A stretch of 64,000 nucleotides of DNA from assembly GCA_023130975.1 (NCBI GenBank), contig JAGMAD010000001.1, positions 17,238 to 81,237 on the forward strand. The letters are read 5' to 3'. The stretch comes from Candidatus Parcubacteria bacterium. Lineage in GTDB: Bacteria > Patescibacteriota > Minisyncoccia > Minisyncoccales > JAGMDC01. Shown here in pieces: positions 2 through 31,187 of this stretch; within the stretch, counting starts at the first letter, position 1, and each line of letters begins with the position of its first letter. The notes beneath the pieces are model-generated. The model made no database searches and had not been told where the DNA came from. It worked only from the letters and a program-made list of their open reading frames with translations. Position numbers and translations under genes: made by a program.

Positions 2-1537
2 TTAGACCACTTAGAAAGCGGTTTTTCCCAGTTTTACAATAATTTCAATGAATTTAAGGCAATAAAAACAAAAGCGAACAAACTCAAGCAATTTATTTAT
101 AATTTCAGCTTTCGTGTTTTTAATAAAAATCAGAGAAGTATTTTAAATTTAGAAGAACTTACCAGTATTTATCACTTTCCTTTATCTCATATTGAAAGCC
201 CTCAGATTAAATGGGTTAAAACAAAAGAAGTGGCTCCACCTACTGAATTACCTTCTACGGGCCTTAATTTAATAGGCAAGGCAGTATTTCGCAGTGAAGA
301 GAAAGAGGTTTATTTTGCAACAGAAAACGACAGACGCCGCCATTGTTATATCATTGGTCAAACCGGAACTGGTAAGTCATCCTTGTTAAGAGAAATGATC
401 CGTCAGGATATAGAACAAGGCAAAGGGGTAGCTGTAATTGACCCTCACGGTGATTTAATTGAAGATACTTTAGCCAATATTCCAAAAGAAAGAGCTGAAG
501 ATGTGATTTTATTTGAGCCGTTTGATTTAGAGAGGCCTTGTGGATTAAATATGCTGGAATGGGATACGCCTGAACAAAAGGACTTTGCTGTTTCTGAAAT
601 GATTGCTATTTTTTCTAAGCTTTTTCCTCCAGAAATCATTGGTCCTATGTTTGAGCATTATATGAGGAATGCTATGTTGGCTTTAATGGCAGACAAGGAT
701 AATCCTGGCACTTTGGTGGAAATTCCCAGAATTTTCACTGATGATGATTTTATGAAGGAGCGGTTAGAAAAAGTTAAAGACCCCTTAGTCAAGCAATTCT
801 GGTTAAAAGAATGGGCTCAAACAACCGGCGAGACAAGGTCAGATATGCTTGGCTATGTTGTTTCCAAGGTTGGCAGGTTTGTTGAAAATGAAATGATGAG
901 GAATATTATCGGCCAGTCCTTTTCTGGGTTTGATTTAGCAAAGATTATGGATGAAGGAAAAATATTCTTAGCCAATTTATCAAAAGGACAAACAGGTGAA
1001 ATGAATAGTTCTTTATTGGGTTTGATTTTGGTCTCAAAAATGCAGCTTGCAGCAATGAAAAGAGGAAAAATGTCAGAAGAGCAGAGAAAAGATTTTTATT
1101 TGTATATTGATGAGTTTCAGAATTTTACTACTGACACTATTGCTACTATTTTGTCAGAGGCAAGAAAATACCGCTTGGATTTAATTTTAGCTCACCAGTT
1201 TATTCCTCAATTAACTGAGGAAATTAGAAATGCCGTAATCGGAAATGTGGGCACTATTGCTGCTTTCAGAATCGGAGCCACTGACGCTGAATTTTTGGAA
1301 AAGCAGTTTGAACCAGAATTTTCTCGCTATGATTTAGTCAACCTTGATAATTTCCAGTTTATTGTTAAGATGATGATAGAAAACAAGGTTTCTAGTCCGT
1401 TTAAGGTAAAAACCATTAAACCAATCAGTGGCAATCCAAAAATTGTAGAACCAGTTAAAAAAATCTCCAAACTAAAATACGGCAGACCGCGAGCCCTGGT
1501 GGAGAGAGAAATTATGGAAAGGTCGAAACTTTATTAA
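2..1537 (+). CDS. VirD4/TraD-like type IV secretion coupling-protein family ATPase (5' end outside window)
   Basis: Frame is open from nt 2, with no stop upstream of the tracked GTG at 230. Walker A GQTGTGKSS, Walker B LYIDEFQNF, ILAHQ motif. FtsK/HerA-superfamily T4CP-like. Confidence 0.6.
   Translation, partial: LDHLESGFSQFYNNFNEFKAIKTKANKLKQFIYNFSFRVFNKNQRSILNLEELTSIYHFPLSHIESPQIKWVKTKEVAPPTELPSTGLNLIGKAVFRSEEKEVYFATENDRRRHCYIIGQTGTGKSSLLREMIRQDIEQGKGVAVIDPHGDLIEDTLANIPKERAEDVILFEPFDLERPCGLNMLEWDTPEQKDFAVSEMIAIFSKLFPPEIIGPMFEHYMRNAMLALMADKDNPGTLVEIPRIFTDDDFMKERLEKVKDPLVKQFWLKEWAQTTGETRSDMLGYVVSKVGRFVENEMMRNIIGQSFSGFDLAKIMDEGKIFLANLSKGQTGEMNSSLLGLILVSKMQLAAMKRGKMSEEQRKDFYLYIDEFQNFTTDTIATILSEARKYRLDLILAHQFIPQLTEEIRNAVIGNVGTIAAFRIGATDAEFLEKQFEPEFSRYDLVNLDNFQFIVKMMIENKVSSPFKVKTIKPISGNPKIVEPVKKISKLKYGRPRALVEREIMERSKLY
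1465..1537 (+). repeat. Copy 1 of a 73-nt duplicated gene tail (present 3' end of the ATPase gene)
   Basis: ctccaaactaaaatacggcagacc ... gagagagaaattatggaaaggtc recurs at 2470-2542. Differences within the shared codons are synonymous (ccg cga gcc ctg gtg vs cca aga gcg tta gtg). Confidence 0.85.
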
Positions 1538-1652
1538 AGTTTAATTGTAAGATTTAGCAGTGTTGTTTGCACTTTTCTTATAAAATAAATTCAAAAATGC
1601 TTAGGAAGTATGAACAGCACTAAGATTTCTTACAGTTTAATTTACAAAAATT

Positions 1653-2396
1653 ATGAAAAGCAAAAAAGAGAAAATAAAAATAGGACATGAAGGACTTGAA
1701 CAGGAGATTTCGGAAATCAAAGAAGGCGCAATAGAAAGAGAAGAATACGCAATTGATACTGTGGAATATCTTCCAAGAAAAGAAAGGAAACAAGCAAAAG
1801 AGAGAATAGAAGTTGCAGTAAAAAAAGGTGCGTACAATGAATACAATAAATGTATTGAGAGATTAAAAAAGGGCGAGATATTTACTGAAACTTCTTTAGA
1901 CATAGGTTCGGTAGTAGAAGATAATAGAGAAAGGGCAGGAAAGATAGCAGAGATGTTTAATTTTGATCGTAGTAAAGTTCGAGAAACAGCAAAGTTAAAT
2001 CCTGATATACAATACAAACACGATATCGAAATAATTAGAAAGGGCGCAGGAGATAAAATATTCGAGACGATAATTGAAAGAACAAAATTATTGGCAAAGG
2101 ATTTTGGTTTGCCGATAGGTGAATTAGAAGCGGCGATAAAAGAAGGTGCTCCTATCAAATATAGAAAACTTTTAGAATCCATAATAGAAGATCCATTTGG
2201 AATAACAGAAGAAGGGATGGAAAACTGTAAAGAATTTGCAAGAAAATATGGTCTTGACGAAAATGAAGTTGGAAATGCATATGAAAGAGGCATTATAAGA
2301 AAAGCATCACATTCATCAGAAAAAACGAATAGCACCCTCAAAGAAGATAAAAAGGAATTAAAAAAGGTCAGAGAACAATTAAAAGGAGAACATTGA
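1653..2396 (+). CDS. Hypothetical Lys/Glu-rich repeat protein (cargo of the segment between the duplicated gene tails)
   Basis: 247-aa ORF with internal ~35-aa repeats ending in K/E-K-G-A (VAVKKGAYNEY, IIRKGAGDKIF, AAIKEGAPIKY, YERGIIRKA). No recognisable family. Confidence 0.5.
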   Translation: MKSKKEKIKIGHEGLEQEISEIKEGAIEREEYAIDTVEYLPRKERKQAKERIEVAVKKGAYNEYNKCIERLKKGEIFTETSLDIGSVVEDNRERAGKIAEMFNFDRSKVRETAKLNPDIQYKHDIEIIRKGAGDKIFETIIERTKLLAKDFGLPIGELEAAIKEGAPIKYRKLLESIIEDPFGITEEGMENCKEFARKYGLDENEVGNAYERGIIRKASHSSEKTNSTLKEDKKELKKVREQLKGEH

Positions 2397-2469
2397 TCCT
2401 AAGTTTTCTGAATTTGAATTTTTTCTAGGGGAATTTAGTTCTCACGCATTATGTGTTGGTAGAATATCA

Positions 2470-2542
2470 CTCCAAACTAAAATACGGCAGACCAAGAGCG
2501 TTAGTGGAGAGAGAAATTATGGAAAGGTCAAAATTAGGATAA
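2470..2542 (+). repeat. Copy 2 of the duplicated gene tail (orphan 3' end, encodes SKLKYGRPRALVEREIMERSKLG*)
   Basis: In-frame homologue of the ATPase C-terminus with its own stop, 25 nt upstream of the next gene (2567). Confidence 0.85.
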
Positions 2543-2566
2543 GATAAATTTTGGATTCATATTAAG

Positions 2567-3361
2567 ATGAAAAATTCATTTGAAAGACCGAAAATTGAGT
2601 ATCCTGAGAAAGGAAAAGAGGACCAAGGATATATAGAAAAATTAAGCAATTTTTTAAAAGAAATAGCTGAAAGTTTAAGAACAGAAAAAGTACCGGTGGA
2701 TGACGATTGTCGCATTGATATGGATGTTTTTAAAGATATTTATAATGTAGAGAAAGATAAGAAATCAATTCAGAGAGCTGAATCTAAATGGTTAGGGTAT
2801 GAAGATCTAAACGAAGAAGAAAAAAGAGCAGAAAAATTAAAACATACAGGAGAACAATTAGAAATGCTCGTTACAGCTATTCTTGGTAAGTTCTTAGGAA
2901 AAGATTTTATTGTTGTGCGTTCTTCTCGCTATGATGATATAAAGAATCAAATTGATAATTTAATATTAGAAAAAGAAACTGGAAACGTAATTTGCGCTTT
3001 TGATGAAGTAGGAGAGAGCAGAGGACCAAGGTTTGAAGAAAAGAAAGAAGCAATTTTAGATAAAGATAGGGAACAAGGAGGAGTTTTAAAATATGGTTTA
3101 AAAATTGAAAAAGGGGAATTAAAATTAGACCCACAAAAAAATATCCCGGTTTTCTACTTAGCTTTAAAAGAAGGGTTGATCAAAAAAGGAGTCAAAGAAT
3201 TTATTCCTTCTTCTGAAGACAAAAGTGATTTTGAAGATAAACTATTTGAGCATTTTAAGACCTCTATTTTATCTCAAATTTCTGCTTTGCTATTAGAGCT
3301 AAAATTAAATCCAGAGATAGAAAAACGTATTTCTTACTTTGAAGAAGTTTTAAAAAAATAG
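2567..3361 (+). CDS. Hypothetical protein
   Basis: 264-aa ORF in tight spacing with its neighbours. No motif I recognise. Confidence 0.5.
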   Translation: MKNSFERPKIEYPEKGKEDQGYIEKLSNFLKEIAESLRTEKVPVDDDCRIDMDVFKDIYNVEKDKKSIQRAESKWLGYEDLNEEEKRAEKLKHTGEQLEMLVTAILGKFLGKDFIVVRSSRYDDIKNQIDNLILEKETGNVICAFDEVGESRGPRFEEKKEAILDKDREQGGVLKYGLKIEKGELKLDPQKNIPVFYLALKEGLIKKGVKEFIPSSEDKSDFEDKLFEHFKTSILSQISALLLELKLNPEIEKRISYFEEVLKK

Positions 3362-3367
3362 AAAAAT

Positions 3368-5251
3368 ATGAGTAAAGGAGAAAGAAGATTAGAAAAAAAA
3401 ATTCTTAAAGAGATGCAAGAAGTGGGCAAAAAAACGGGCTGGGATGTTTCGGTTGAAAAAGTTGAAGAGGATAATGTTACAAATAAAACAAAAGAAGAAC
3501 TAAAAAGGTCGGAAAAAAAAGATGAAAATAATAATAACAAAAATATGGGAAAACAAGAAAAAGGAGAAAAAATAGCGGATAAAGAAATAAATAAAGATAG
3601 TATGTCAAAGGAAGAACAAGATGAAATACTGGAAGCGAGAAAAAAAGAAGCGGAGAAAGGAGAAGTAAAAGGAAAGAAAGAAAAAAGAGAAGTAGAAGAA
3701 GTAAAACCTGAAAAAATTACTCGTCCCTGGGAAGAAACAGCAGAAAGGGAAGAGGTTCGATTGTATGAAGAATTTACTAAAAAATTTGAATTAGAAAAGG
3801 AGAAGAAAGATCATATTGAAAAGGTACTTCAAACAGAGACAGATGAGAGAAGAATTGAATTTGCTGTAAAATGGTTTGAAGAGCATAGAGAAGAACTCGA
3901 AAAGAAAGGCATATCTTCAGAAGTCGAACTTTCAAAAGATAGAATGGCAGAGATAGCCATTGAAAAAGGTGCATTTAAGGATTTGGAAACAAATAAAAAA
4001 TATAAGAGGGATTTGGAAAATATAGAAAATATGTATGCCATGAGGAAAGATTTTGAAAAGGGAGTAGAGTGCCCGATTGAAAGCCAGTTTGCAATTTTAC
4101 ATACCTTAGACAAAAGAGCAAAGAGTATTAGAGATGAAATACAAGAAATGGAAAAAGCAGGAAAATCAGATATAGAAAAAGATGAAAAGAAAAATGAATT
4201 AGATGATTTATTAGAAGATAGAAAAGAATTGGCTGGAAAAATTAAGGGTTTAGATTTAGATAAGATAGCTGAAGAAAGAGTGGGACCCTTAGAAGGACAA
4301 GATTCTTATATTGAAAGATTAACAGATGAAAGAAAGCAAGGAGAAGAATTTTGTAAAAAGTGTAATTTAGTATTGGGCAAGGAAATGACTTTTGGAAAAT
4401 GGAAAGATATGGGTAAATTTGACAGAGACAGAATAAAAAAAGAATTTGAGGACAGTCTCGCGAAGATTAAAAAAAGATTAGAAGAAGCATATCCAAAGAA
4501 AATGATGACCGTGGACGATGAAAAGATATTGGCTTTAATGAATGCAGGATATAATGTGGAAGAAGTTAGATTAAAAGGACTTTCATTGGAAGGATTATTC
4601 GGTAGAGTTGAACTTAAAAAAACTGATGGAACAATAGAGAAAGTAAAATATAAAGAATTTTCAAAATTCGTTGAAGAAAAAGTAAGAAATTACGACCAAG
4701 CAATTGAAGACAAAGCAAAAGAAGAATTAGGAAGTGAATGGAAAGAAATGAAACGAAAGCGTGAAGAGAAAATAAAAGATGAGATAGAAAAAGAAATAAG
4801 CACTATGGTAGAATCTCCAGAAAAAGCAGCTGGAGGAATAGAGGCTTTATTTGATAGTATTAAGGGAAGGTTAATTAATGAATATTTAGAAAAAGGAACC
4901 AAAAAAGAAAGAAAAACTGCTGAGGAAATAGAAGAATTAAAAGAATATGAAAAAAAAGGAAAGATAAAAGATCCTTATAGGTTTATGTCCGAGGTTATTG
5001 AAAGAAAAAAAGGCCTTGATAAAATAAGCGGTGATATGGAAGAGGACCCTGGTTTTATTGAAGAATATCTTAAAAATAGCCAAAACATAGAAACATCTGA
5101 AGATGACATTATACGTTTTATTGAAAGTCAAGAAAAGCAGGGGATAAATTTAGGAGAAATAGTAAAATCAGAAAAGGGACTTTGGGATTATTTTGAAGAA
5201 TTAGTAGCATATGTTTTAGGGCTTGAAAAAAAAGAAGAAAATAAAGAATAA
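3368..5251 (+). CDS. Hypothetical large Lys/Glu-rich coiled-coil-like protein
   Basis: 627-aa ORF with extreme K/E content. Contains AEIAIEKGAFKD, resembling the KGA repeats of ORF 1653-2396. Antisense ORFs here are low-complexity mirrors. Confidence 0.55.
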   Translation: MSKGERRLEKKILKEMQEVGKKTGWDVSVEKVEEDNVTNKTKEELKRSEKKDENNNNKNMGKQEKGEKIADKEINKDSMSKEEQDEILEARKKEAEKGEVKGKKEKREVEEVKPEKITRPWEETAEREEVRLYEEFTKKFELEKEKKDHIEKVLQTETDERRIEFAVKWFEEHREELEKKGISSEVELSKDRMAEIAIEKGAFKDLETNKKYKRDLENIENMYAMRKDFEKGVECPIESQFAILHTLDKRAKSIRDEIQEMEKAGKSDIEKDEKKNELDDLLEDRKELAGKIKGLDLDKIAEERVGPLEGQDSYIERLTDERKQGEEFCKKCNLVLGKEMTFGKWKDMGKFDRDRIKKEFEDSLAKIKKRLEEAYPKKMMTVDDEKILALMNAGYNVEEVRLKGLSLEGLFGRVELKKTDGTIEKVKYKEFSKFVEEKVRNYDQAIEDKAKEELGSEWKEMKRKREEKIKDEIEKEISTMVESPEKAAGGIEALFDSIKGRLINEYLEKGTKKERKTAEEIEELKEYEKKGKIKDPYRFMSEVIERKKGLDKISGDMEEDPGFIEEYLKNSQNIETSEDDIIRFIESQEKQGINLGEIVKSEKGLWDYFEELVAYVLGLEKKEENKE

Positions 5252-16698: not shown

Positions 16699-16836
16699 GC
16701 CCGAGGCAACCTTGTTCTGAGCTCGTCCTGAGCTCGTCGAAGGACTGCCTCGGGCTTTTGTTTTTCATTGATAAAAACCCAAAAATGAGTTAAATTAAAA
16801 GAATGGAGGAAAATAAAAACAGAATAAAAGATTTAG
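16699..16836 (+). repeat. Duplication copy A: GC terminator hairpin, radC promoter and first 11 radC codons
   Basis: gcccgaggc...gcctcgggcttttgttttt, then attgataaaaacccaaaaatgagttaaattaaaagaATGgaggaaaataaaaacagaataaaagattta. Matches 17523-17671. Confidence 0.85.
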
Positions 16837-16861
16837 CGAAAGTTAAAAAATATTTAAAAAT

Positions 16862-17386
16862 ATGGCGACACAAGATTTAGCTAAAAAACCTAAAGACCAA
16901 ATTTATTACGCTTTTATTGATAGCCAGAATCTAAATTTAGGCATCCAAAGTTGTGGCTGGAAATTAGATTTTGCCAGATTTTATATTTATCTTAAGGATA
17001 AGTATAAAGCGGAAAAAGCGTTTTTGTTTATTGGTTATGTTGCCGGCAATGAGGCACTATACACCTTTCTACAAAAAACAGGATATATTGTTATATTTAA
17101 GCCAACATTAGAATACAAAAAGGACGATGTAGTGCATACCAAAGGCAATGTTGACGCTGAATTAGTTTTACACACAATGATAGAATACCCAAATTATGAT
17201 AAAGCGGTTATCGTTTCTGGCGATGGTGATTTTCACTGCTTAATTGAATATTTAGAACAAAAAAGAAAATTGGGACGAGTTATTATTCCGAACAGAAAGA
17301 GTTATTCTCAGCTTCTCTGGAAATTCAAAAAATATATGGATTTTATGAATAATTTAAGAAATAAACTTGAAAGACACAACAAATAA
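16862..17386 (+). CDS. NYN (LabA-like, PIN-superfamily) domain protein, copy 1
   Basis: YAFIDSQNLNLG, FLFIGY, GNVDAELVLHTM, VIVSGDGDFHCLIEYL. Paralogue of 21828-22346. Confidence 0.8.
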   Translation: MATQDLAKKPKDQIYYAFIDSQNLNLGIQSCGWKLDFARFYIYLKDKYKAEKAFLFIGYVAGNEALYTFLQKTGYIVIFKPTLEYKKDDVVHTKGNVDAELVLHTMIEYPNYDKAVIVSGDGDFHCLIEYLEQKRKLGRVIIPNRKSYSQLLWKFKKYMDFMNNLRNKLERHNK

Positions 17387-17440
17387 AAAAAGGGGTGTCG
17401 CTTTAAGGACGAAACCTTAAAGACTTTTCCCCTTCGTGAT
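17385..17440 (-). ncRNA. Candidate ~55-nt hairpin RNA convergent on NYN copy 1
   Basis: Bounded by the promoter at 17447-17474 and a hairpin plus U run (GAAGGGG..CUUUAAGG-UUUCGU-CCUUAAAG..CCCCUUUUUUU). Start is approximate. Confidence 0.4.
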
Positions 17441-17446
17441 ATATTA

Positions 17447-17474
17447 AGTATAGCAAACTGACACCCCTTGTCAA
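17447..17474 (-). promoter_or_regulatory. Sigma70-like promoter TTGACA-16-TATACT on the minus strand
   Basis: -35 at 17469-17474 and -10 at 17447-17452, read on the minus strand. Confidence 0.5.
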
Positions 17475-17522
17475 GTGGAAAATTACACTTAACCAAAAAA
17501 GAAAATAAAACTTGAATTAGTT

Positions 17523-17671
17523 TGCCCGAGGCGATTGCCTCGGGCTTTTGTTTTTGATTGCTATTGAGTACCAAAAAAACCTGTCCTGAGCCTGTCGAAG
17601 GAATTGATAAAAACCCAAAAATGAGTTAAATTAAAGTAATGGAGGAAAATAAAAACAGAATAAAGGACTTA
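17523..17671 (+). repeat. Duplication copy B: terminator hairpin plus the functional radC promoter and 5' end
   Basis: TTGATA (17604-17609), 17 nt, TAAATT (17627-17632), 6 nt, ATG 17639. Differs from copy A by two synonymous changes in the 11 shared codons. Confidence 0.85.
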
Positions 17672-18325
17672 CCCAAAGTAGAACGGCCGAGAGAGAAATT
17701 AATTTTGAAAGGGCCCGAAAATTTAAAAGATGAAGAACTTCTGGCAATTTTGCTTCGGACTGGCAGGGAAGGCAAAAATGTTTTAGATTTAGCCAAGCAG
17801 ATTTTGAATAAACATTCAAAAAAGCGTTTTTTGAAGATGAGATACGAGGATTTAATAAAAGTGAAAGGAATAAACGAAGCCAAGGCCTGCACAATTCTCG
17901 CCAGTATGGAATTAGTCAAAAGAGCCTTAAAAATCCAGGATGAAACCTTACCAATTATTAATTCTTCTAAAGATGTAATAGCTCAAGCCGTTTATTTGAG
18001 AGATAGAACTCGCGAACACCTAATGACTATTTATCTCAACGCTAGAAATGAGATGGTTTGGAAAAAACAATCGACATTTATTGGCACTTTAAATACCAAT
18101 TTAGTTCATCCCAGAGAAATTTTTCAAGAAGCTTTAAAACACAATGCCGCCTCAGTAATTTTAGTCCACAATCATCCTTCAGGAGATAGCGAGCCATCCC
18201 AAGATGACTTAGAAATAACAAAGAGAATTATTGAAGCCGGCAAAATAATGGGCATAGATGTTTTAGACCACATAATCATCACCAAAACCAAAGCATTCAG
18301 CTTCAAAGAAAAAAAGTTGATATAA
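17639..18325 (+). CDS. radC: RadC-like JAB/MPN domain protein
   Basis: IKDLPKVERPREKL N-terminus, HhH region, JAMM motif HNHPSGDSEPSQDD. Confidence 0.9.
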   Translation: MEENKNRIKDLPKVERPREKLILKGPENLKDEELLAILLRTGREGKNVLDLAKQILNKHSKKRFLKMRYEDLIKVKGINEAKACTILASMELVKRALKIQDETLPIINSSKDVIAQAVYLRDRTREHLMTIYLNARNEMVWKKQSTFIGTLNTNLVHPREIFQEALKHNAASVILVHNHPSGDSEPSQDDLEITKRIIEAGKIMGIDVLDHIIITKTKAFSFKEKKLI

Positions 18326-18360
18326 TAAACAAAATCCAAAACTAGAAATATATTAAAACT

Positions 18361-18717
18361 ATGTCAGATATAAAAAACCTAACAGAAAAAATCATAAAAT
18401 TCAGGGATGAACGCGATTGGAAACAATTCAATAATCCTAAAGATGTGGCTTTATCTTTACTTTTAGAAGCAACGGAAGTTTTGGAACATTTTCAGTGGAA
18501 GAATCCAGAAGAAATTGCAGAATATATAAAAACCAACCAAAATGAAATTGGGGAAGAATTGGCTGATGTTCTGTATTGGATTTTATTGATGAGTCATGAT
18601 CTCGAGTTGGATATCTTAGATGTGCTTGAGAAGAAAATTCAAAAAAATCAAAAAAATATCCCATTAAGAAAGCCAAAGGTAATCACACTAAATATAATAA
18701 ATTGTAACTATGCGTAA
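18361..18717 (+). CDS. MazG-like all-alpha nucleotide pyrophosphohydrolase
   Basis: FRDERDWKQFNNPKDVALSLLLEATEVLEHFQW ... GEELADVLYWILLMS (EExxE...D metal-binding helices). Confidence 0.8.
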   Translation: MSDIKNLTEKIIKFRDERDWKQFNNPKDVALSLLLEATEVLEHFQWKNPEEIAEYIKTNQNEIGEELADVLYWILLMSHDLELDILDVLEKKIQKNQKNIPLRKPKVITLNIINCNYA

Positions 18718-19855
18718 TATATTTATACTTTATATGCCGCCGGGTAACAGTGAAGTAATGGTACACTATGAAGATACTATTAAGAATAAAGTTCCGCAGG
18801 AACGGATCTTTAAGTATTTGGATTTTAATTTACAAAATAGGTTAAAAAATGTTTTTAGTAACAGATCTATTGCTGTGTGGGGATCTAGAGATTCTAGTGC
18901 TAATCGTTCGCGTTTCGAAAAAATGCAAATAGGGGACGATATATTAATCGTAGAGGGCGAAATAATCAAACTGATGGGAAAAGTGGCAGCCAAAGTAATT
19001 AGCCCTAATTTGTCGTGCGAGCTTTGGAAAAATTTAAGAGGGGAATCAACAGAGGGATGGAACCTTATTTATTTTATCGCTAACCCACTTGAGATTAATC
19101 TACCATTCAATGAATTTAAGAAGATATTTGGTTACAAACCAAGTTGGAACTTGCGTGGTTTTACGAATATTTCTGATGATAGGCTTGAGGAATTTTATGA
19201 TAAATATGATGACCTTTATTCAATTTTGCAAAAGATAAAAGGCGGAGAAAAAATTGAACAAAAACTTGAGCCAGAGTTTATCAGGGAAAAAGAAATAGAG
19301 AAAACCAGATTAGAGACGGAAGATATAGATGACATTCTGAATAATAAGGAACTCTCCGAACATATAAAAATGCAATGGAAGCTTATCCGACTTGGGTTGA
19401 AAGCTGACTCCAAGGTTTGGATTCCACGAAATGATCAGTCAAGAATAGAAAAGCAATTTGGCTTTAGGGATTTTGAGAAACAATTTGCATCTGGTATAGA
19501 TGTACCTGTGCAATATGTTGAGAATATTGATGTGGTGTGGAAGGAGGAATTTCGTATCCATGCAGCCTTCGAAATAGAGAATACAACTGCAATATATTCT
19601 GGCTTACTTCGTTTTTCTGATTTAAAAATTATAGCCCCTAACAGCCCGTATCCATTGTTTATAGTGGCTCCATTATCAAAGAAGAACCGTGTTTTTCAAC
19701 AAGTGAAGAGGCCGACATTCCGAGAACTTGGCTTTGACAAGGAAGTGCGTTACCTTGCTTATGAAGTAGTTAATGAAATTGACAAGTTTTTTGATAAATC
19801 AAAGAAGGGACTAAATGTTGAATTATTAGTAGGCAAGTCGGAAAAGGCAAGCTAG
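18710..19855 (+). CDS. Hypothetical protein, possible modification-sensing nuclease (weak call)
   Basis: Overlaps mazG-like by 8 nt. The N-terminal half looks like a small beta-barrel (AVWGSR...GDDILIVEGEIIKLMGKV). The C-terminal half has IDVVW...AAFEIENTTAIYSGLLRFSDL, reminiscent of a restriction-endonuclease-like core. No firm family. Confidence 0.3.
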   Translation: MRNIFILYMPPGNSEVMVHYEDTIKNKVPQERIFKYLDFNLQNRLKNVFSNRSIAVWGSRDSSANRSRFEKMQIGDDILIVEGEIIKLMGKVAAKVISPNLSCELWKNLRGESTEGWNLIYFIANPLEINLPFNEFKKIFGYKPSWNLRGFTNISDDRLEEFYDKYDDLYSILQKIKGGEKIEQKLEPEFIREKEIEKTRLETEDIDDILNNKELSEHIKMQWKLIRLGLKADSKVWIPRNDQSRIEKQFGFRDFEKQFASGIDVPVQYVENIDVVWKEEFRIHAAFEIENTTAIYSGLLRFSDLKIIAPNSPYPLFIVAPLSKKNRVFQQVKRPTFRELGFDKEVRYLAYEVVNEIDKFFDKSKKGLNVELLVGKSEKAS

Positions 19856-19937
19856 CTAATTAGCTAGCTGTTTTAATTTGTAGTTTTCACTAAGCGTCTG
19901 CAAAAAGGTCAAAGAATACTAAAACCAGATTGATAAA

Positions 19938-19997
19938 ATGGTATATAAACTTTACGGCTTAACAAAGGAGAAAATTAAAATTGTTGAGCAAAAATAA
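19938..19997 (+). pseudogene. Orphan C-terminal tail of a type IIG/RM-type DNA methyltransferase-like gene
   Basis: Encodes (QIDK)MVYKLYGLTKEKIKIVEQK*. This is the stereotyped ..lVYeLYGLTeeEIkiVE end of such enzymes, preceded by in-frame stops. Confidence 0.5.
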
Positions 19998-20046
19998 AAA
20001 GATGAATAAGGAGTTTTATAATTTTTAAATAATTAAAATAAAATTT

Positions 20047-21726
20047 ATGGCTACTTATCAAGATTTTTCTTTAATTAAAAAAGAGGTTGAGTTTGTTAAA
20101 AAAAGAAATGATATAGATAAATTATCTATGGCTTTTATTTTTATGGTCCTAGAGAAATTATATCCAGATATAGAACCTTTTGAGAATATTACTGATGACA
20201 CAAGAGATTTAAGTGTAGATGCTTATTATATTGATAAAAATACGAAAACAATAAATATTTTTCAATTCAAATATACTGAAAATTTTAATACAGCAAGAAA
20301 TAAAAACGCTTTAAAAGAAAAAGAAATAAACGATTTTATTATAAAATTAAAGTATATTTGGGATAGGGACGAGGAATTTATTAAAAAAGCAAATCATAAA
20401 TTAAAAGACGCAATTAAGGAAATTTGGTCAGCATTTGAAGATGGATATACTAAAACAAATATTTACTTTGTTTCTAATTATAAAGATACAATTAATGGAG
20501 GAAATATTAAGGAAATTCAAAAAAAACTTAAAAATGAATTTAGAGGAAAATTAAAAATATTATCTTTAAATGATTTAATAAAGGTTTTTATAAAAGAAGA
20601 GTTTTCTCCAGTAGATATTAAATTACAGTTAAAGGGTAAAAATTACTTTGAAGAATCAACCGGTGATGTCAGAGCGTTGATTTCAGAAGTAAATGCGTTA
20701 AATTTTTTAAAATCAATTTTAGATGAAAATGATAATTTAATTGAAGATGTGTTTAATGAAAATATTAGGGTTTATTTGCGTTCCAATACAAAAATAAATA
20801 AACAGATATATAATTCTATTGAAAGCAAAAGTAATTATAAATTTTTTTATTACAACAATGGCATTACTGCTATTTGTGATAATTTTGAACACAATTTTTC
20901 TGATAGTCCAATTGTTAATATGGATAATTTTCAAATTGTTAATGGTGGCCAAACAATGCATGCTATTTACGAAGCCTATAAAAATGGATTACAGGATAAT
21001 GTAGGAAATATTTATTTACTTTTAAGAGTTTATGAGGTTAAAAAAAATAGGGAAATTGGTCAAGATATAGCAAGATTTACAAACACTCAAAATCCTGTAA
21101 AAAATAGAGATATAATGTCAAATGATATGATTCAGGTTAAATTACAAAAAGAATTAAGAAAAGAAGGATTTTTTTATGAAAGGAAGAAATACGAATTCAG
21201 AGATCAAAAAATTGGTAATGATAAAAAAGTAGATGCAGAAAAATTAGGACAATCAATCCTTGCTTTTTATATTGACAAACCGGGTTCTGCCAAAAATAAG
21301 AAGCAAGAAATTTTTGGAAATTTTTATAATAGTATTTTTGATGAAAGCAGAATAAATAGCGATTTTGTTCTATTACCCTATCTTTTATATAAAAAGATAG
21401 ATAACGATGTTAGAGAATTTAAAGTAGAACTAAAAAGATTAGAAAAGGCGGGAAAAACGGAAAAAATGAAAACAAAAATAGAAAGAAATGGATTTTTAAA
21501 TTATGCACATTATTATTTATTATTTACATTAAAAGTATTAGCTGATAAGAACAACATTTTGTTTGAAAAGGCAAATATTACAAAAATATTTGAGAATTAC
21601 AATAAGGCAAAAGATATATTACGTAAGATAGTTGATAAGGAAAAAAAGAATCCAAAATTTTCCATGCCCTATCTTTTTAAAACAGACGATCTTGTAAAAA
21701 AGATAAAAGACAAAATTGATAAATAG
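20047..21726 (+). CDS. AIPR (abortive-infection phage resistance) family protein
   Basis: YYNNGITAICD and FQIVNGGQTMHAIY blocks as I recall for the AIPR family. 559 aa, very AT-rich. Confidence 0.55.
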   Translation: MATYQDFSLIKKEVEFVKKRNDIDKLSMAFIFMVLEKLYPDIEPFENITDDTRDLSVDAYYIDKNTKTINIFQFKYTENFNTARNKNALKEKEINDFIIKLKYIWDRDEEFIKKANHKLKDAIKEIWSAFEDGYTKTNIYFVSNYKDTINGGNIKEIQKKLKNEFRGKLKILSLNDLIKVFIKEEFSPVDIKLQLKGKNYFEESTGDVRALISEVNALNFLKSILDENDNLIEDVFNENIRVYLRSNTKINKQIYNSIESKSNYKFFYYNNGITAICDNFEHNFSDSPIVNMDNFQIVNGGQTMHAIYEAYKNGLQDNVGNIYLLLRVYEVKKNREIGQDIARFTNTQNPVKNRDIMSNDMIQVKLQKELRKEGFFYERKKYEFRDQKIGNDKKVDAEKLGQSILAFYIDKPGSAKNKKQEIFGNFYNSIFDESRINSDFVLLPYLLYKKIDNDVREFKVELKRLEKAGKTEKMKTKIERNGFLNYAHYYLLFTLKVLADKNNILFEKANITKIFENYNKAKDILRKIVDKEKKNPKFSMPYLFKTDDLVKKIKDKIDK

Positions 21727-21827
21727 GAGGTGAAAAAGGGATCAGGAACCTTTTTATAAATTAATGAATGCTGAAGAGTTAAAAGCAAAACAAAAGATTA
21801 AAGAATTAATTAAATTTAAATAAAATT

Positions 21828-22346
21828 ATGGAAAAACAAGAAAGCAATTTTGCGTTTATTGACAGTCAAAACCTTAATTTAGGAATTCAAAACTTGGGCT
21901 GGAAATTGAATTACAGAAGATTTAGAGTTTATTTAAAAGAGAAATATAAAGTATCTATAGCTTATTTGTTTATCGGCTATATTCCAGCTAATCAAGACTT
22001 ATATTCTTCATTGCAAGAAGCCGGGTATGTTTTGGTTTTCAAGCCGACGTTGCCTGATAAGAATGGAGAGGTAAAGGGTAACGTGGACGCAGATTTGGTT
22101 TTACAGGTAATGATTGATTATAAGAAATATAACAAAGCTATAATTGTTACAAGCGACGGAGATTTTTATTCTTTAGTTAAATATTTATACAAAAATGATA
22201 AACTTAGATGCGTGATAAGTCCATATATTAAAACTTGTTCGGTTTTGTTAAAAAAAACAGCTAAAGAAAAAATTGTTTTTATAGAAAATTTGCGTAAAAA
22301 ACTTGAATATAAAATGAAAAAGCACCGCGTAAGGACAAAACCTTAA
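21828..22346 (+). CDS. NYN (LabA-like) domain protein, copy 2
   Basis: FAFIDSQNLNLG, YLFIGY, GNVDADLVLQVM, IIVTSDGDFYSLVKYL. Collinear with copy 1. Confidence 0.8.
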   Translation: MEKQESNFAFIDSQNLNLGIQNLGWKLNYRRFRVYLKEKYKVSIAYLFIGYIPANQDLYSSLQEAGYVLVFKPTLPDKNGEVKGNVDADLVLQVMIDYKKYNKAIIVTSDGDFYSLVKYLYKNDKLRCVISPYIKTCSVLLKKTAKEKIVFIENLRKKLEYKMKKHRVRTKP

Positions 22347-22370
22347 AAGGTGCTTTTTCGTATGTATTCT
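22316..22370 (-). ncRNA. Candidate ~55-nt hairpin RNA convergent on NYN copy 2
   Basis: Promoter at 22377-22404, then GAAAAAGCACC-UUUUAAGG-UUUUGU-CCUUACGC-GGUGCUUUUU. Overlaps the last ~10 codons of the NYN gene antisense. Confidence 0.4.
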
Positions 22371-22376
22371 ATTATC

Positions 22377-22404
22377 AATATAGCAAACCACAGACCTTTG
22401 TCAA
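22377..22404 (-). promoter_or_regulatory. Sigma70-like promoter TTGACA-16-TATATT on the minus strand
   Basis: -35 at 22399-22404, -10 at 22377-22382. Same layout and same flanking gtttgctata as at 17447-17474. Confidence 0.5.
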
Positions 22405-22454
22405 GAGGTGAAATAAATAACCAAAATTTAGGCTGAAGTTGAGGGAAATTTAAA

Positions 22455-22709
22455 ATGTTTATGGTAAAGAAAAATTCTCAAGCTTATACAATAAAGATTT
22501 ATTGTATGAAATGCAAAACTCTTCTTTATAGATACAAAAAGGAAGGACAGGGACATTTAGTAAAATGCTATAAAGATGGAATTATTGAAGATAATACAAA
22601 AGGGGATTTGAAATGTCCTAAATGTAAACAGTTATTTGCAAGAGAAGCTATGTACCATAATCGGCTGGCTAACAAAATAATTCAAGGAAAAGTTTATGTA
22701 AGAAGATAA
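22455..22709 (+). CDS. Hypothetical zinc-ribbon protein
   Basis: CMKC...20 aa...CPKC four-Cys ribbon in an 84-aa basic protein. Confidence 0.45.
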   Translation: MFMVKKNSQAYTIKIYCMKCKTLLYRYKKEGQGHLVKCYKDGIIEDNTKGDLKCPKCKQLFAREAMYHNRLANKIIQGKVYVRR

Positions 22710-22758
22710 AAAAATTTAAAAACAAGGTTGAAGAATTATTATTTGAGGAATTAAATTT

Positions 22759-23304
22759 ATGGAAAATCAAGAAAAAAGAATTTTTCTAATCGGGATTTTT
22801 GGGGGAATAATAGGGGTATTTTTGGTTTTTGCAGGAATTATTTGCTTTTTCGTTTCAATGGAAAAGCTGCACACTATTCAAGTTAATTGTCTGCCTGAAA
22901 AATCAGTTGAAACAAGAAACATTAGCTGCGAGATTTTAGAAGTTAAGGAAATGGGAGACATCCTAAAAGCAGCAGAGATAGTGTCTCCACCTATTAATGA
23001 AGAGGAACTAAAAAGAATAAAAGATTTGAAAACAGAAGGAAAGTTTGTAAAAGTAAAAGTGAAAGTTCTGAATAAAAGAAAGGATTCAATTAATCTTTCA
23101 GCCACTTATTTTATTGACGGAGAAGGAAGAAGATTTACTGCTTCCTATCAAGCCAATTATTGGCTGTCGGAAGAGGAGAAGTTTAGTGGAAGCATTCTCC
23201 CAGATACGGAAAAAGAGTTCGCCAAAATTTTTGAAATTTCAGAAAATTCTGCTCTGGCTAAGTTGAAAATAAAGTTTTATCGCCAAACAAGAATATTTGA
23301 TTAA
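22759..23304 (+). CDS. Membrane-anchored DUF4352-like protein
   Basis: N-terminal TM helix. Ig-like domain pattern FVKVKVKVLNKRKDSINLSATYFIDGEGRRF. Confidence 0.45.
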   Translation: MENQEKRIFLIGIFGGIIGVFLVFAGIICFFVSMEKLHTIQVNCLPEKSVETRNISCEILEVKEMGDILKAAEIVSPPINEEELKRIKDLKTEGKFVKVKVKVLNKRKDSINLSATYFIDGEGRRFTASYQANYWLSEEEKFSGSILPDTEKEFAKIFEISENSALAKLKIKFYRQTRIFD

Positions 23305-23772
23305 TCAAGAAATAAGGTTGTCTGTATTTTTTGATAAAAAAAAGAAAGGATGCTAGAGAAGGCATCCTTATAATAATAACGATATAATATCATTCATTCG
23401 GTGAAAACCTCTGGCTGGTTCCCAATTCTCCCTCCGCAACATTCGGAGGAAAGGCCAAAGACAAACTTCTTAATAATAAATGTGAGTACAATATATAAGG
23501 AAATGAGTGAAATAGATGAAAAAGATAAAAAGAAAATTAAGAAGTTTTTTAGTGAGCCCGCAGTTAAAAATTGTAATGAACTATGTAATGAACTATCCTC
23601 TATCAATTAGATGGTGTCTAACTGATAGAGGTTGAGAAAAAGATTTCTTTTTCCTTTTCTCTCCATTTCCATAATAGCACAATAGATTTTCTTGTCAAGG
23701 GCTTTTTGTGAAAATTCAAAAATCGCGAGCCACTCTTTTGCCCACGACGATTTTTTGGTAGAATAGGATAAT

Positions 23773-25017
23773 ATGTCATTTGAACAAAAACTTAAAAAGT
23801 ATGCCGAAGTTATTGTAAAGATTGGACTCAATCTTCAACTAAACCAGCGGCTTTTTATAAAGGCAGATATTGAGGCAATACCACTTGTCCGTCTTGTCAC
23901 TGAATATGCCTACAAACAAAAATCTAAATTGGTTAGTGTTATTTTTGAAGATAAAAGTTTAGATTTAATTAGACTCCGAAATAGCAAATATAATTTTTTA
24001 AGAGAATATGAAAAATGGAAAGTGGAACTATTAATAAAAGCAATTAAACGCGGCGATTCGATTTTAAACATCATTTCACCTAATCCCGAGCTATTTAAAA
24101 ATATTAATCCTAAATTAATCACTACTCTTAGAGAATTAGTATATAAAGATACTTCTGAATATCAAAAATATTTAATAAAAAATGAAATAAATTGGTGTAA
24201 AGTAGCGGTTCCAAATTCTTCCTGGGCAGAAAAAGTATTTCCTAATCTCTCGCAAAAAAACCAGTTGTCTGCTCTATGGGATGAGCTTTTCGAAGTATCT
24301 CGCATCAACAATCCTAATCCTGTCTTAGCTTGGAAAAGACATATTTCTGAATTATCTATAATAACTGATTATTTAAACAGAAAACAGTATACCTCTCTGG
24401 AATTTATTTCGCCAAGCACTAATTTAGTTATTGGTTTGTCTAAAAATCATGTCTGGGCTGGTGGAGCAGTTGAGACAGAAAAAAATCGAAAGATAAGATT
24501 TAGCCCAAATATACCAACAGAAGAAATTTTTACTTTACCTCATAGAGAAAAAGTCAATGGCGTAGTTACTTCTTCAAAACCATTAAATTATGGAGGGGTT
24601 TTTATTGAGCATTTTTCTCTTACCTTTAAAAATGGAAAAATAATAAAAGTAAAAGCTAAGAAAAATGAAAAAATATTAAAAAGAATTATAAAAACTGACG
24701 AGGGCTCCTGCAGATTAGGCGAAGTAGCCTTTGTGTCAAACAGTTCACCGGTTTCCAAATCTGGATTAATTTTCTACAGCGATCTTTTTGATGAAAATGC
24801 AGCTACCCACCTTGCGTTAGGCAAGGCCTTGAGAATTAATATTAAAAACGGCGTTAAGATGTCGGAAAAATCATTTTTAAAGGCCGGAGGCAATATCAGC
24901 CTAATTCATGTTGATTTTATGATTGGCTCAAATAAAATGGATGTCTTTGGTGTTAAAAAAGATAAAAAGATAGAGCCAATTATGAAAAAAGGTGAATGGG
25001 TTTTAGATATAAAATGA
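23773..25017 (+). CDS. Aminopeptidase, M29 (AmpS/PepS) family
   Basis: KYAEVIVKIGLNLQ N-terminus, EEIFTLPH, GEVAFV, AATHLALG, IHVDFMIG metal-site blocks. Confidence 0.85.
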   Translation: MSFEQKLKKYAEVIVKIGLNLQLNQRLFIKADIEAIPLVRLVTEYAYKQKSKLVSVIFEDKSLDLIRLRNSKYNFLREYEKWKVELLIKAIKRGDSILNIISPNPELFKNINPKLITTLRELVYKDTSEYQKYLIKNEINWCKVAVPNSSWAEKVFPNLSQKNQLSALWDELFEVSRINNPNPVLAWKRHISELSIITDYLNRKQYTSLEFISPSTNLVIGLSKNHVWAGGAVETEKNRKIRFSPNIPTEEIFTLPHREKVNGVVTSSKPLNYGGVFIEHFSLTFKNGKIIKVKAKKNEKILKRIIKTDEGSCRLGEVAFVSNSSPVSKSGLIFYSDLFDENAATHLALGKALRINIKNGVKMSEKSFLKAGGNISLIHVDFMIGSNKMDVFGVKKDKKIEPIMKKGEWVLDIK

Positions 25018-26031: not shown

Positions 26032-26727
26032 TTGATGATTTTAGAAAAAATGAACTACCTTGCCCCAAGGCGCAAGGTATCTCTTCGGGCAAGTTCTTTC
26101 GGCGGCTTTCATTCCCGCCGCTTGCGACGGGATATTTTCGCCACCGAAATAAAAAATAATTTATTCTTTTGTTCAGTTATAATAATATTTGTTATTTTCT
26201 TTTTAATTGACCTAATAATAGGAGATTCTCAATTATTTTTAATAATAAATAAAAAAATTGCCAATCCTTATTTGGATTGGATAGTTATTTCTATATTTTA
26301 CCCTTTATTTTCTCTTTTATTTATTGTTCCTTTAATTTGTCTTTTTAAAAAAGAATGGAGAAGAGCAAGTTTGATTGCTTTAATCTCTGGGCCGCTGAGT
26401 TATATTATAGGTGATTTTCTTAAAATTTTAATTGCCAGACCTCGACCATTTGAAGTTCTTTCTGTCAATTTATTAGGTCCTTGGCATACCACTAGTTTTT
26501 CCTTTCCTTCTACTACTACTGCCTTAGTTTTTGGCTTAGCTCTTCCATTTTTGATTTATAAAAATAAGTTTGCAGGTTTGCTTATCCCTATTTCTTTTTT
26601 AGTTGGATTTTCTGTAATTTATACAGGGTTTCACTTTCCCTTAGATGTAATGGCTGGCGCAATTCTTTCCTTAGTGCTTGTACTTTCTCTATCTATTTTT
26701 CTGACGAAGTTTAACATCAAAAAATAA
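26032..26727 (+). CDS. PAP2-family phosphatase (start uncertain)
   Basis: KILIARPRPF, SFPSTTTA, GFHFPLDVMAG PAP2 motifs. The first ~40 codons are the translated family-2 repeat element. Confidence 0.75.
   Translation: MMILEKMNYLAPRRKVSLRASSFGGFHSRRLRRDIFATEIKNNLFFCSVIIIFVIFFLIDLIIGDSQLFLIINKKIANPYLDWIVISIFYPLFSLLFIVPLICLFKKEWRRASLIALISGPLSYIIGDFLKILIARPRPFEVLSVNLLGPWHTTSFSFPSTTTALVFGLALPFLIYKNKFAGLLIPISFLVGFSVIYTGFHFPLDVMAGAILSLVLVLSLSIFLTKFNIKK
26050..26154 (+). repeat. GC-rich hairpin repeat, family 2, copy a (~105 nt)
   Basis: atgaactaccttgcc..cgggcaagttctttcggcggctttcattcccgcc..ccgaaataaaa. Aligns with 31512-31592 on the same strand. Confidence 0.7.
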
Positions 26728-30731: not shown

Positions 30732-31025
30732 CTATATGTCTTCTAAAGAATATAATCTATAGTTCCTGGAAAGATACCAACGATCTAGCAAAAAGAGAGT
30801 GGTGCCTAAGTAAACGAAAATCGATCCTGTCACATATAAACAAATTGTCAATCCTCTTGTCAATCCTCCAAAATCCAAAGTCCATGCTACAGCTATGAAT
30901 ATCAATCCAGTTACCATGTTAGTTACATGGTATTTTACTCTCTCTCCAATACTCATTTCCATCTTTTTTCCAGTTATCATGCTGGTTACATAATGTTTTA
31001 CTTTCTTTCCAATACTTATTTCCAT
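30732..31025 (-). CDS. Small membrane protein with internal tandem repeat
   Basis: ATG 31025 with SD aggagg. MEISIGKKVKHYVTSMITGKK / MEMSIGERVKYHVTNMVTGLIF duplicated ~21-aa unit, then two TM helices. Tracked N-terminal extension rejected. Confidence 0.5.
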   Translation of the reverse strand: MEISIGKKVKHYVTSMITGKKMEMSIGERVKYHVTNMVTGLIFIAVAWTLDFGGLTRGLTICLYVTGSIFVYLGTTLFLLDRWYLSRNYRLYSLEDI

Positions 31026-31187
31026 CTTTTTATCACCTCCTATTCTGTTTAAAACAATGCTACACGTTACGTTCCGGATAGGATTTGAATCTGCGTCTTC
31101 GGCTCGAGAAGCTAAAATACTAAACTGAACTATCACCACCGGAGCATTATTAAAGATAGCATTTTTTACGATTTGTGTCAAGCGAAA

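Follow-up and report, generated by a model that had tools for sequence, protein, structure and literature searches.

The 64,000-nucleotide stretch of Candidatus Parcubacteria bacterium contig JAGMAD010000001.1 (assembly GCA_023130975.1, positions 17,238 to 81,237 of the forward strand), referred to here as the window, begins within a gene for a VirD4/T4CP-like ATPase whose 3′ end is present twice, once at the current end of the gene and once as an orphan about 1 kb downstream. On balance, we consider the locus to be probably a recombination scar, in which a foreign 1-kb segment with homology on the ATPase side only brought in a new gene tail and displaced the old one. The structure is a fairly ordinary footprint of recombination between related species and not a new kind of system. 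The features of the locus, including its open reading frames (ORFs), are as follows.

2 to 1537, + strand: VirD4/T4CP-like ATPase gene (Pfam), the 3′ 511 codons of 810 amino acids (aa), with the start upstream of the window
1465 to 1537, + strand: copy 1 of the repeat, the current ATPase gene end (SKLKYGRPRALVEREIMERSKLY, then stop), judged to be the incoming allele
1537 to 1643, + strand: imperfect hairpin of 107 nt, directly after the ATPase stop and part of the insert
1653 to 2396, + strand: ORF247, the cargo gene, encoding an all-helical repeat protein of 247 aa
2397 to 2469, + strand: spacer of 73 nt, the right end of the insert, ending at the non-homologous junction 2469/2470
2470 to 2542, + strand: copy 2 of the repeat, the orphan ATPase tail (SKLKYGRPRALVEREIMERSKLG, then stop), judged to be the resident, displaced tail
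2567 to 3361, + strand: ORF264, a conserved Patescibacteria gene with the orphan tail and 24 nt as its native upstream region
3368 to 5251, + strand: ORF627, the next conserved gene, a homolog of which directly follows the ATPase in the related loci L010, L011, and L099

The direct repeat occupies positions 1465-1537 and 2470-2542, with a start-to-start distance of 1005 nt, or 335 codons, and an identical reading frame. Both copies correspond to the last 23 codons and the stop of the 810-aa ATPase gene and encode the common peptide SKLKYGRPRALVEREIMERSKL, followed by Y and a stop in copy 1 and by G and a stop in copy 2. As a preliminary reading made from the letters of the window alone (the sequence-only reading) had described, the 73-nt repeat is in frame and its copies differ, apart from the final residue, in six codons that are all synonymous. 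These differences amount to 8 nt (CCG/CCA, CGA/AGA, GCC/GCG, CTG/TTA, TCG/TCA, and CTT/TTA in copy 1/copy 2), whereas the last codon is TAT in copy 1 and GGA in copy 2; the stop codon is TAA in both. When 8 substitutions were placed at random in 200,000 simulations, the peptide was never preserved, and 8/8 synonymous changes have a probability below 5e-6. The differences are clumped (P = 0.004), and the identical stretches that they leave, of 24 and 27 nt, are the longest exact matches of the two copies. On its left side the repeat has a clear-cut boundary, beyond which (upstream of 1465 and 2470) the two sequences are dissimilar. The orphan stop codon lies at 2540-2542, 24 nt (not 25 nt, as first counted) before the ATG of ORF264. 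The frame of the orphan tail is open for only 37 codons and lacks an ATG, and the tail should not be called a gene in annotation; the intact-looking ATPase gene conceals a hybrid origin. Leaving aside paralogous genes and one in-gene tandem repeat, only two short repeats that bracket a segment in this manner are present in the window.

An empty version of the site was found in a related genome. The closest relative of the ORF264 protein (P0124, 89% aa identity) is encoded on L014, a 2.2-kb Logan contig in which the ATPase ends in KLG and a stop, followed by 23 nt and the ORF264 homolog; the tail is contiguous and there is no insert. Window positions 365-1528 align with L014 1-1164 at 88.4% identity and positions 2470-3574 with L014 1101-2212 at 89.1%. 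Because both window segments align collinearly, L014 corresponds to the window with precisely 1005 bp missing. The additional DNA is a genuine insertion specific to the lineage, and the comparison across related genomes that the sequence-only reading had proposed thus yields an empty site, with the ATPase tail directly before the ORF264 homolog.

The sequence-only reading had named an assembly artefact, a collapsed or expanded repeat, as what could undo it, and a related concern is a chimera between co-occurring related genomes. Both can be regarded as hardly credible. The arrangement recurs in at least five assemblies from two pipelines at 99.7-100% identity: it is 100% identical in ENA assemblies ERZ23499054 and ERZ23498665 and in Logan runs SRR13892598/99, and two loci of an ERZ23498622 scaffold are 99.7% identical to the window. 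Both copies and both junctions are contained in six loci (L001-L006) from several samples of one study, and the ORF247 and ORF264 neighbors are identical across ENA and independent Logan contigs. Since no exact run shared by the copies exceeds 27 nt, which is below usual assembly k-mers, k-mer graphs with k ≥ 31 are unable to fuse them; the region of copy 1 with copy-1-specific 31-mers is GGCAGACCGCGAGCCCTGGTGGAGAGAGAAA. The data set does contain either chimeric paths or very recent exchange, as a 540-nt patch of the ATPase gene in L001 matches the co-assembled L010 at 100% identity. Even so, a chimera would still require a real molecule with a copy of the tail behind ORF247. The patch itself (ATPase gene nt 721-1260, or window -141 to 352) matches a locus of the same sample whose ATPase is 93% identical at the aa level. 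The 54 differences between L001 (ERZ23498622 scaffold_133) and the window are confined to ~500 nt, and their cause could be an assembly chimera or very recent gene conversion.

The two copies of the tail differ in the relatives that they resemble. The end of copy 2, TTAGGATAA, together with the spacer behind it matches L014 and L099, the stretch reading AAATTAGGATAA, ATAA, and TTTTGGAT. At the differing sites copy 2 holds the L014 state (CCA, AGA, TCA, TTA, GGA), so that nearly all changes map to copy 1. Copy 1 ends in AAACTTTATTAAAGT, like L011; it has mismatches to L014 at 17/73 positions and to L011 at 8/73, with a single mismatch to L011 in its last 33 nt. Immediately upstream, at ATPase positions 1300-1464, there are 12/165 mismatches to L014 and 23/165 to L011, and the sequence changes from L014-like to L011-like exactly where the repeat begins, at 1465. 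Two of the copy 1 codons are rare in the gene, CGA occurring 0 times and CTG once among the other 786 ATPase codons, and the codons of copy 2 are likelier by ~12,700-fold under the ATPase's own usage and by ~300-fold under the usage of the window. The claim of the sequence-only reading that the original tail was displaced agrees with these affinities: the orphan and its downstream spacer resemble the resident tail as seen in L014, and the current gene end, with its rare codons, resembles the allele of another lineage. In situ divergence following a long target-site duplication was rejected, both because nearly all changes lie on copy 1 and copy 2 keeps the L014 states and because 8/8 synonymous differences are incompatible with neutral decay of an orphan.

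Homology is absent at the right junction, 2469/2470, where similarity stops abruptly and only 1 nt is shared. The spacer at 2397-2469 resembles neither the ATPase sequence before 1465 nor any of the related loci (1.55 Mb). Without homology at this junction, the structure cannot be the product of an ordinary double crossover between alleles, and either one junction must be illegitimate or the insert must have entered as a circle by a single crossover. The sequence-only reading had proposed that a ~930-bp cassette was swapped in by homologous recombination with a diverged allele of the same gene. Of that proposal, the arrival of a diverged gene end with the insertion still holds in outline; the homologous swap does not, as homology is one-sided and the right junction non-homologous.

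Under the scenario that we favor, the ancestral locus would have been arranged as in L014, with the ATPase (its tail ending in KLG and a stop), 24 nt, ORF264, and ORF627. DNA of a related Patescibacterium would have been taken up, plausibly by natural transformation; Saccharibacteria, which are cultivated Patescibacteria, are described as naturally competent (PMC10633639). The donor ATPase would have ended in KLY and a stop, like that of L011, and would have been followed by the hairpin and ORF247. The left joint would fall within the conserved 3′ end of the ATPase gene, either in the identical block 1465-1488 or shortly before it, and the right end would have been joined illegitimately at 2469/2470, 23 codons before the resident stop. 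The outcome would be a net gain of exactly 1005 bp and an ATPase that ends in the donor tail, with the resident tail surviving as a non-coding orphan that is still the native upstream region of ORF264. We infer that the event had this polarity; the differences between the copies would then be synonymous because the divergence did not follow the duplication but built up between two lineages in each of which purifying selection acted on the tail as part of a working gene. The segment could have entered as a linear fragment anchored by ATPase homology with an illegitimate joint at its far end (homology-facilitated illegitimate recombination, HFIR) or by a single crossover between the chromosome and a circle carrying 73 nt of the tail.

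Several observations weigh against this scenario. The sole known empty-site relative is L014, a contig of 2.2 kb. The donor locus, with the ATPase followed by the hairpin and ORF247, was not found, and neither was any diverged allele, the source assumed in the sequence-only reading, with ORF247 behind the ATPase: the close homolog of ORF247 on L013 and remote relatives on L181 and L182 do not adjoin an ATPase. A copy-1-specific 23-mer is absent from JGI metagenome contigs. The codon evidence is weighed cautiously, since the tails of the relatives also use some rare codons. Window positions 3350-3383, comprising the ORF264 stop, the spacer, and the first ORF627 codons, are identical to the intergenic region and gene start of L011, unlike L014. 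Finally, both copies have TAC where four relatives have TAT, and this shared TAC and the clumping of the differences are not predicted by simple linear HFIR; they favor, and under HFIR would need, either a crossover within the repeat or a subsequent gene conversion involving the two copies.

The insert has the two components that the sequence-only reading had placed between the copies, an imperfect hairpin and ORF 1653-2396. The hairpin spans 1537-1643 and has a folding energy of -27.9 kcal/mol (z = -3.1), which was equaled by 1/200 shuffles. It is unique within the window; the hairpin and the spacer have no match in the 1.55 Mb of related loci, and the hairpin arm has none in viral contigs. 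A known RNA was rejected, as no Rfam match was obtained even at E ≤ 1, and so was an intrinsic terminator, as none was detected and there is no terminator-like T-run. The right arm of the hairpin (1603-1642) is 73% identical, over 40 ungapped nt, to 1507-1546, which is the end of copy 1 plus 9 nt beyond it. Both stretches terminate in AGTTTAATT, and the ATPase gene end, AAACTTTATTAAAGTTT, is a near-perfect palindrome. The likeness could be a degenerate third copy of the tail or chance.

ORF247 is the only ORF of the insert supported as a gene, although an antisense ORF of 234 aa (1637-2341) is also listed. Its product has no Pfam or PADLOC match, and its sole PHROGs match is weak (phrog_5608, unknown function, E = 0.0019). 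A word-indexed search returned one close homolog, P0122, with 53% aa identity, to which an exhaustive HMMER search added four remote relatives (E = 6e-6 to 3e-4). ORF247 and its relatives are built from ~45-aa helical repeats. The AlphaFold model of ORF247 has a predicted local distance difference test (pLDDT) score of 89; it matched nothing in the PDB better than E = 0.17, and a RecX match in the fold search (probability 0.57) is a lead only. A phage or plasmid origin of the insert was rejected after tblastn of ORF247 against phages and blastn of window 1400-2600 against plasmids found nothing. No integrase, excisionase, transposase, or phage or plasmid gene or remnant is present in 1538-2469; ORF247 is cargo and not a mobility gene. 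The cassette was found in one population only.

The ATPase gene that received the insert is open in frame 2 from base 2 to the TAA at 1535-1537, and the full gene of 810 aa is present on an overlapping contig (L002:2461-4893). Pfam matches above the cut-off are TrwB_AAD_bind (1.6e-11; 44.2 bits, cut-off 20.5), DUF87 (8.8e-11), and T4SS-DNA_transf (2.6e-10; 40.2 bits, cut-off 20.1), with DUF8128 additionally present in the full-length product, and the Walker A motif reads GQTGTGKS. The 6202 homologs detected are predominantly from Patescibacteria. No virB4, relaxase, or other type IV secretion system gene lies within about 10 kb on either side of the ATPase; a published survey found only 148/5,713 Patescibacteria T4CP homologs near virB4 (PMC12102498). 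Relative to its relatives the ATPase gene is mosaic (max-chi-square permutation P = 0.006-0.009), and its nearest relative shifts every few hundred nucleotides, from L010-like at 365-1024 to L011-like at 1085-1204 and L014-like at 1265-1464. Recombination between these lineages must therefore be common, and with a gene that is mosaic throughout, "native" is a blurred notion at this locus. In L059 (1128-6163), two full-length ATPase paralogs (819 and 858 aa) stand in tandem, the start of the second overlapping the stop of the first.

A second scar of the same type is present in the window.

16767 to 17679, + strand: radC/NYN scar, with 77-nt direct repeats that are 92% identical

Its repeats, 16767-16843 and 17603-17679, comprise the upstream region and first 13 codons of radC; the insert at 16844-17602 contains an NYN-domain ORF (16862-17386), and the intact radC lies at 17639-18325. 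The codons common to the copies differ at three synonymous positions and one non-synonymous position. Each copy is preceded, in a different register, by a similar terminator-like hairpin (cccgaggc...gcctcgggcttttgttttt). The copies have a 33-nt exact run in common, and for this reason the Logan contigs L185 and L187 end at the edge of the radC repeat. As seen via L183, radC belongs to an accessory or defense-like cluster (16862-24000) with NYN, RadC, MazG-like, NmeDI_C restriction-endonuclease-like, AIPR (abortive infection), and second NYN genes. Two further repeats were noticed in the window, neither of them in Rfam: a GC-rich 66-nt direct repeat (26050-26115 and 31512-31577, 83% identical, 5.5 kb apart), of which one copy is at the 5′ end of a + strand ORF and the other antisense to a - strand ORF, and a 63-nt tandem duplication (30906-31031, 86% identical) inside ORF 30732-31181.

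Outside the window, a tail-profile search of 80 genome loci carrying the ATPase returned no other orphan, the apparent second tail in L059 being rejected as the full tandem paralog. Among 80 metagenome loci fetched through ORF264, orphan ATPase fragments occur only in L112-L114, which belong to a distant lineage. There, a 29-codon ATPase tail stands directly before the ORF264 homolog and after an MNT-HEPN pair, and a 98-codon fragment follows the homolog. In L113 the fragments lie at 1740-1829 and ~2745-3044 and differ at nine synonymous and six non-synonymous codons; there is no ATPase body in the 1 kb before the MNT-HEPN pair, and a perfect 10-bp GC-rich hairpin (CTGACAGGGGTTTGACCCCTGTCAG) immediately precedes the longer fragment. 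Since the lengths of the orphans (23, 29, and 98 codons) and the targets differ, general recombination is indicated rather than a site-specific system.

The interval between the ATPase and ORF264 is variable, measuring 9 to 2268 nt, with differing extra ORFs in L111, L135, L127, and L102. The last of these has four extra ORFs before the ORF264 homolog (2764-5000). The 5′ ends of its ORF258, ORF221, and ORF264 homolog are near-identical (MRNIERGPxVE), giving three copies that bracket the extra ORFs, as does a duplication of ~150 nt (84-90% identical) that runs from the 3′ end of ORF258 or ORF221 across the intergenic region to the start codon of the next gene. The arrangement in L102 resembles a small array of cassettes that have conserved handles. 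An N-terminal motif, approximately M-x-x-[FI]-E-[RKQ]-(G)-P-x-[IV]-E, is common to otherwise unrelated proteins encoded behind the ATPase; it is found in ORF264 and ORF627 of the window and in extra ORFs of L102, L111, L127, L135, and L113. The N terminus of the inserted ORF resembles that of its own lineage's ORF264 homolog, and these 15 residues are disordered in the ORF264 model (pLDDT < 50). The motif may serve recombination as a handle or may be a functional signal; if functional, it could mark the ATPase-linked array proteins as clients of the ATPase.

Other histories of the locus have to be weighed against the insertion of an ORF247 segment. The polarity could be the reverse, which we regard as possible though unlikely. 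An L011-type locus (an ATPase ending in KLY and a stop, then ORF627) would already have carried the hairpin and ORF247, and an L014-like fragment would have brought ORF264 together with the donor's last 23 ATPase codons, making the orphan tail a hitch-hiker and the current gene end native. Consistent with such a history, the end of copy 1 (CTTTATTAAAGT) and window 3350-3383 both match contiguous L011 sequence, both outer edges of the 1.8 kb lacking in L011 are L011-like, and three of the four closest relatives (L010, L011, and L099) are without ORF264. In addition, L113 has its 29-codon ATPase tail and ORF264 homolog behind an unrelated MNT-HEPN pair, with a left edge 5 codons from the orphan edge of the window. 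We nevertheless rate the reverse polarity lower, because it needs two separate L014-like imports (ATPase 1265-1464 and 2470-3349) flanking a resident 1-kb piece where one import would be simpler, because it does not predict a switch of affinity exactly at 1465, and because ORF264 behind the ATPase is the widespread arrangement whereas ORF247 is nearly unique. The codons of copy 1 are also atypical of the gene. A decayed integrative element, of the type represented by e14 or phage 21 in icd, appears improbable. A site-specific recombinase would have put such an element, with a replacement gene end of its own, into the 3′ end of the ATPase gene, and the later loss of the integrase and most of the cargo by deletion would have left 1 kb between attL and attR. 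The anatomy does resemble icd/icdC, with a replaced gene end, a displaced C-terminal fragment, and mostly synonymous differences (PMC13626634), and the identical 24- and 27-nt blocks could be a core site. However, the insert is free of integrase, excisionase, and phage or plasmid remnants, the 80 genome loci carrying the ATPase have no other orphan tail, the L113 orphans of 29 and 98 codons compared with 23 here are at odds with a fixed att boundary, and the radC scar has another target.

We consider it very improbable that the 1005-bp unit (tail, hairpin, ORF247, and spacer) is a self-perpetuating cassette that manages without a recombinase, leaving as a circle via the 24-27-nt blocks and re-entering other genomes by a single crossover with the conserved ATPase tail as its homology handle. 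A single crossover with a circle yields exactly such direct repeats, with an extent equal to the homology on the circle, the identical blocks are roughly as long as RecA-type exchange minimally requires, the differences are clumped, and the two scars of the window are alike in repeat length (73 and 77 nt) and spacing (1005 and 836 nt). On the other side, neither a circle junction nor an empty-site variant was seen, the predicted empty-site ATPase protein of this population (ending in KLG) is absent from a 15-billion-protein collection, the unit was found in a single population, and the origin of the first circle would still require an illegitimate event. More broadly, the interval behind the T4CP-like ATPase might be a recombinase-free cassette site across Patescibacteria, where single genes are gained and shuffled via short conserved handles (the tail of the ATPase gene and the ORF264-family 5′ end), and the 1005-bp unit could be one such cassette, popping out and re-entering by host recombination; we give this conjecture little weight.

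Downstream of the scar, the ORF264 family comprises 90 detected proteins, all unannotated and from Patescibacteria. In the closest carriers the homolog lies directly behind the ATPase (at a distance of 23 nt in L014 and 2 nt in L015, with similar arrangements in L101, L106, and L107). Across a wider sample, the ATPase C terminus is found upstream of the homolog in only 12/56 loci with enough upstream sequence, and any ATPase similarity in only 23/80 loci fetched through ORF264. The presence of ORF264 is patchy among close relatives: L010, L011, and L099, whose ATPases are 90-93% identical at the aa level, are without ORF247 and ORF264 and have the ORF627 homolog right after the ATPase. The ORF264 model (pLDDT 89.6) has only weak fold matches, to the restriction endonucleases DrdV, BstEII, and BpuSI (E = 0.3-2.7). 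The family has the invariant acidic and basic residues E99, R118, D123, D124, D130, D146, and K159 in the motif RSSxYDDIxNxxDNxILEKETGNxxCAFDEV; ORF264 may be a PD-(D/E)xK-like nuclease. A promoter-like site at 2456-2483 (TTGGTA, 16 nt, TAAAAT) spans the right junction, with the -35 box in the spacer of the insert and the -10 box in the orphan tail. It could drive ORF264, although such sites are not more numerous in the region than in shuffled sequence. The genes within 8 kb of the locus are the ATPase, ORF264, ORF627, ORF70, and RmuC (Pfam), together with L21, an uncharacterized 91-aa ORF, and RecR (locus annotations).

The locus offers a base-resolved, dated footprint of gene gain by recombination among Patescibacteria that are ~11% apart in DNA, uncultivated organisms whose routes of gene exchange are mostly inferred, and it reveals no new molecular machine. 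Two scars in one 64-kb stretch, a mosaic ATPase, and cassette content that varies behind this ATPase in other lineages suggest one-sided homologous insertion as a routine means of accessory-gene gain in these reduced genomes.

Among known systems, integron cassettes share with the insert a ~1-kb, promoterless-looking single ORF and a long imperfect hairpin behind a fixed point, but integron insertion does not duplicate 73 nt of the neighboring gene. An integron cassette was rejected, as the hairpin ends, AAGTTTAATTG and CAGTTTAATTT, are without attC core sites (RYYYAAC ... GTTRRRY), GTTTAAT misfitting GTTRRRY. Neither IntI nor attI is among the genes within 8 kb of the locus. The sole recombinase-like gene noticed in the window is a Xer-type-looking tyrosine recombinase ORF (50870-51826, ...HTIRHSYATDLL...GHKSILTTQIYTH), 48 kb away. 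The variable repeat/template repeat pair of diversity-generating retroelements also consists of near-identical copies, one at the 3′ end of a gene and one non-coding downstream. Here, the differences are synonymous and there is no reverse transcriptase between the copies. Such an element was rejected because the changes are not adenine-restricted, copy 2 having A at 6 and copy 1 at 1 of the 11 differing nucleotides.

The closest textbook anatomy is that of icd/icdC around prophage e14, and also phage 21, in Escherichia coli (PMC13626634; Hill et al. 1989, cited there). In both cases an insert in the 3′ end of a gene brings a replacement end, the original C-terminal fragment persists beyond the insert as a pseudogene, and most differences between the copies are synonymous. 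The e14 prophage, however, measures 15 kb and brings a site-specific recombination system of its own, whereas the insert described here is 1 kb long and without recombinase or phage genes. For Vibrio cholerae type VI secretion system (T6SS) effector-immunity arrays and rhs, one-sided homologous insertion by HFIR has been proposed, leaving displaced downstream remnants or orphan 3′ regions (PMC5361080), and the analogy that the sequence-only reading drew to orphan C-terminal modules fits this model in its anatomy but not in its content. As in rhs, contact-dependent inhibition (CDI), and T6SS displacement, a conserved upstream coding region serves as the anchor, new DNA lies behind it, the old 3′ part is kept as an orphan, the far junction is without homology, and no dedicated recombinase takes part. 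Unlike those systems, the old and new tails here encode the same peptide save the last residue, so that nothing polymorphic and no functional module was exchanged; ORF247 and ORF264 have no toxin, immunity, or defense family match, the cargo is a single helical-repeat ORF, and the host gene is a T4CP-like ATPase of Patescibacteria. The locus adds another instance of a known scar type and modest evidence on how Patescibacteria gain genes.

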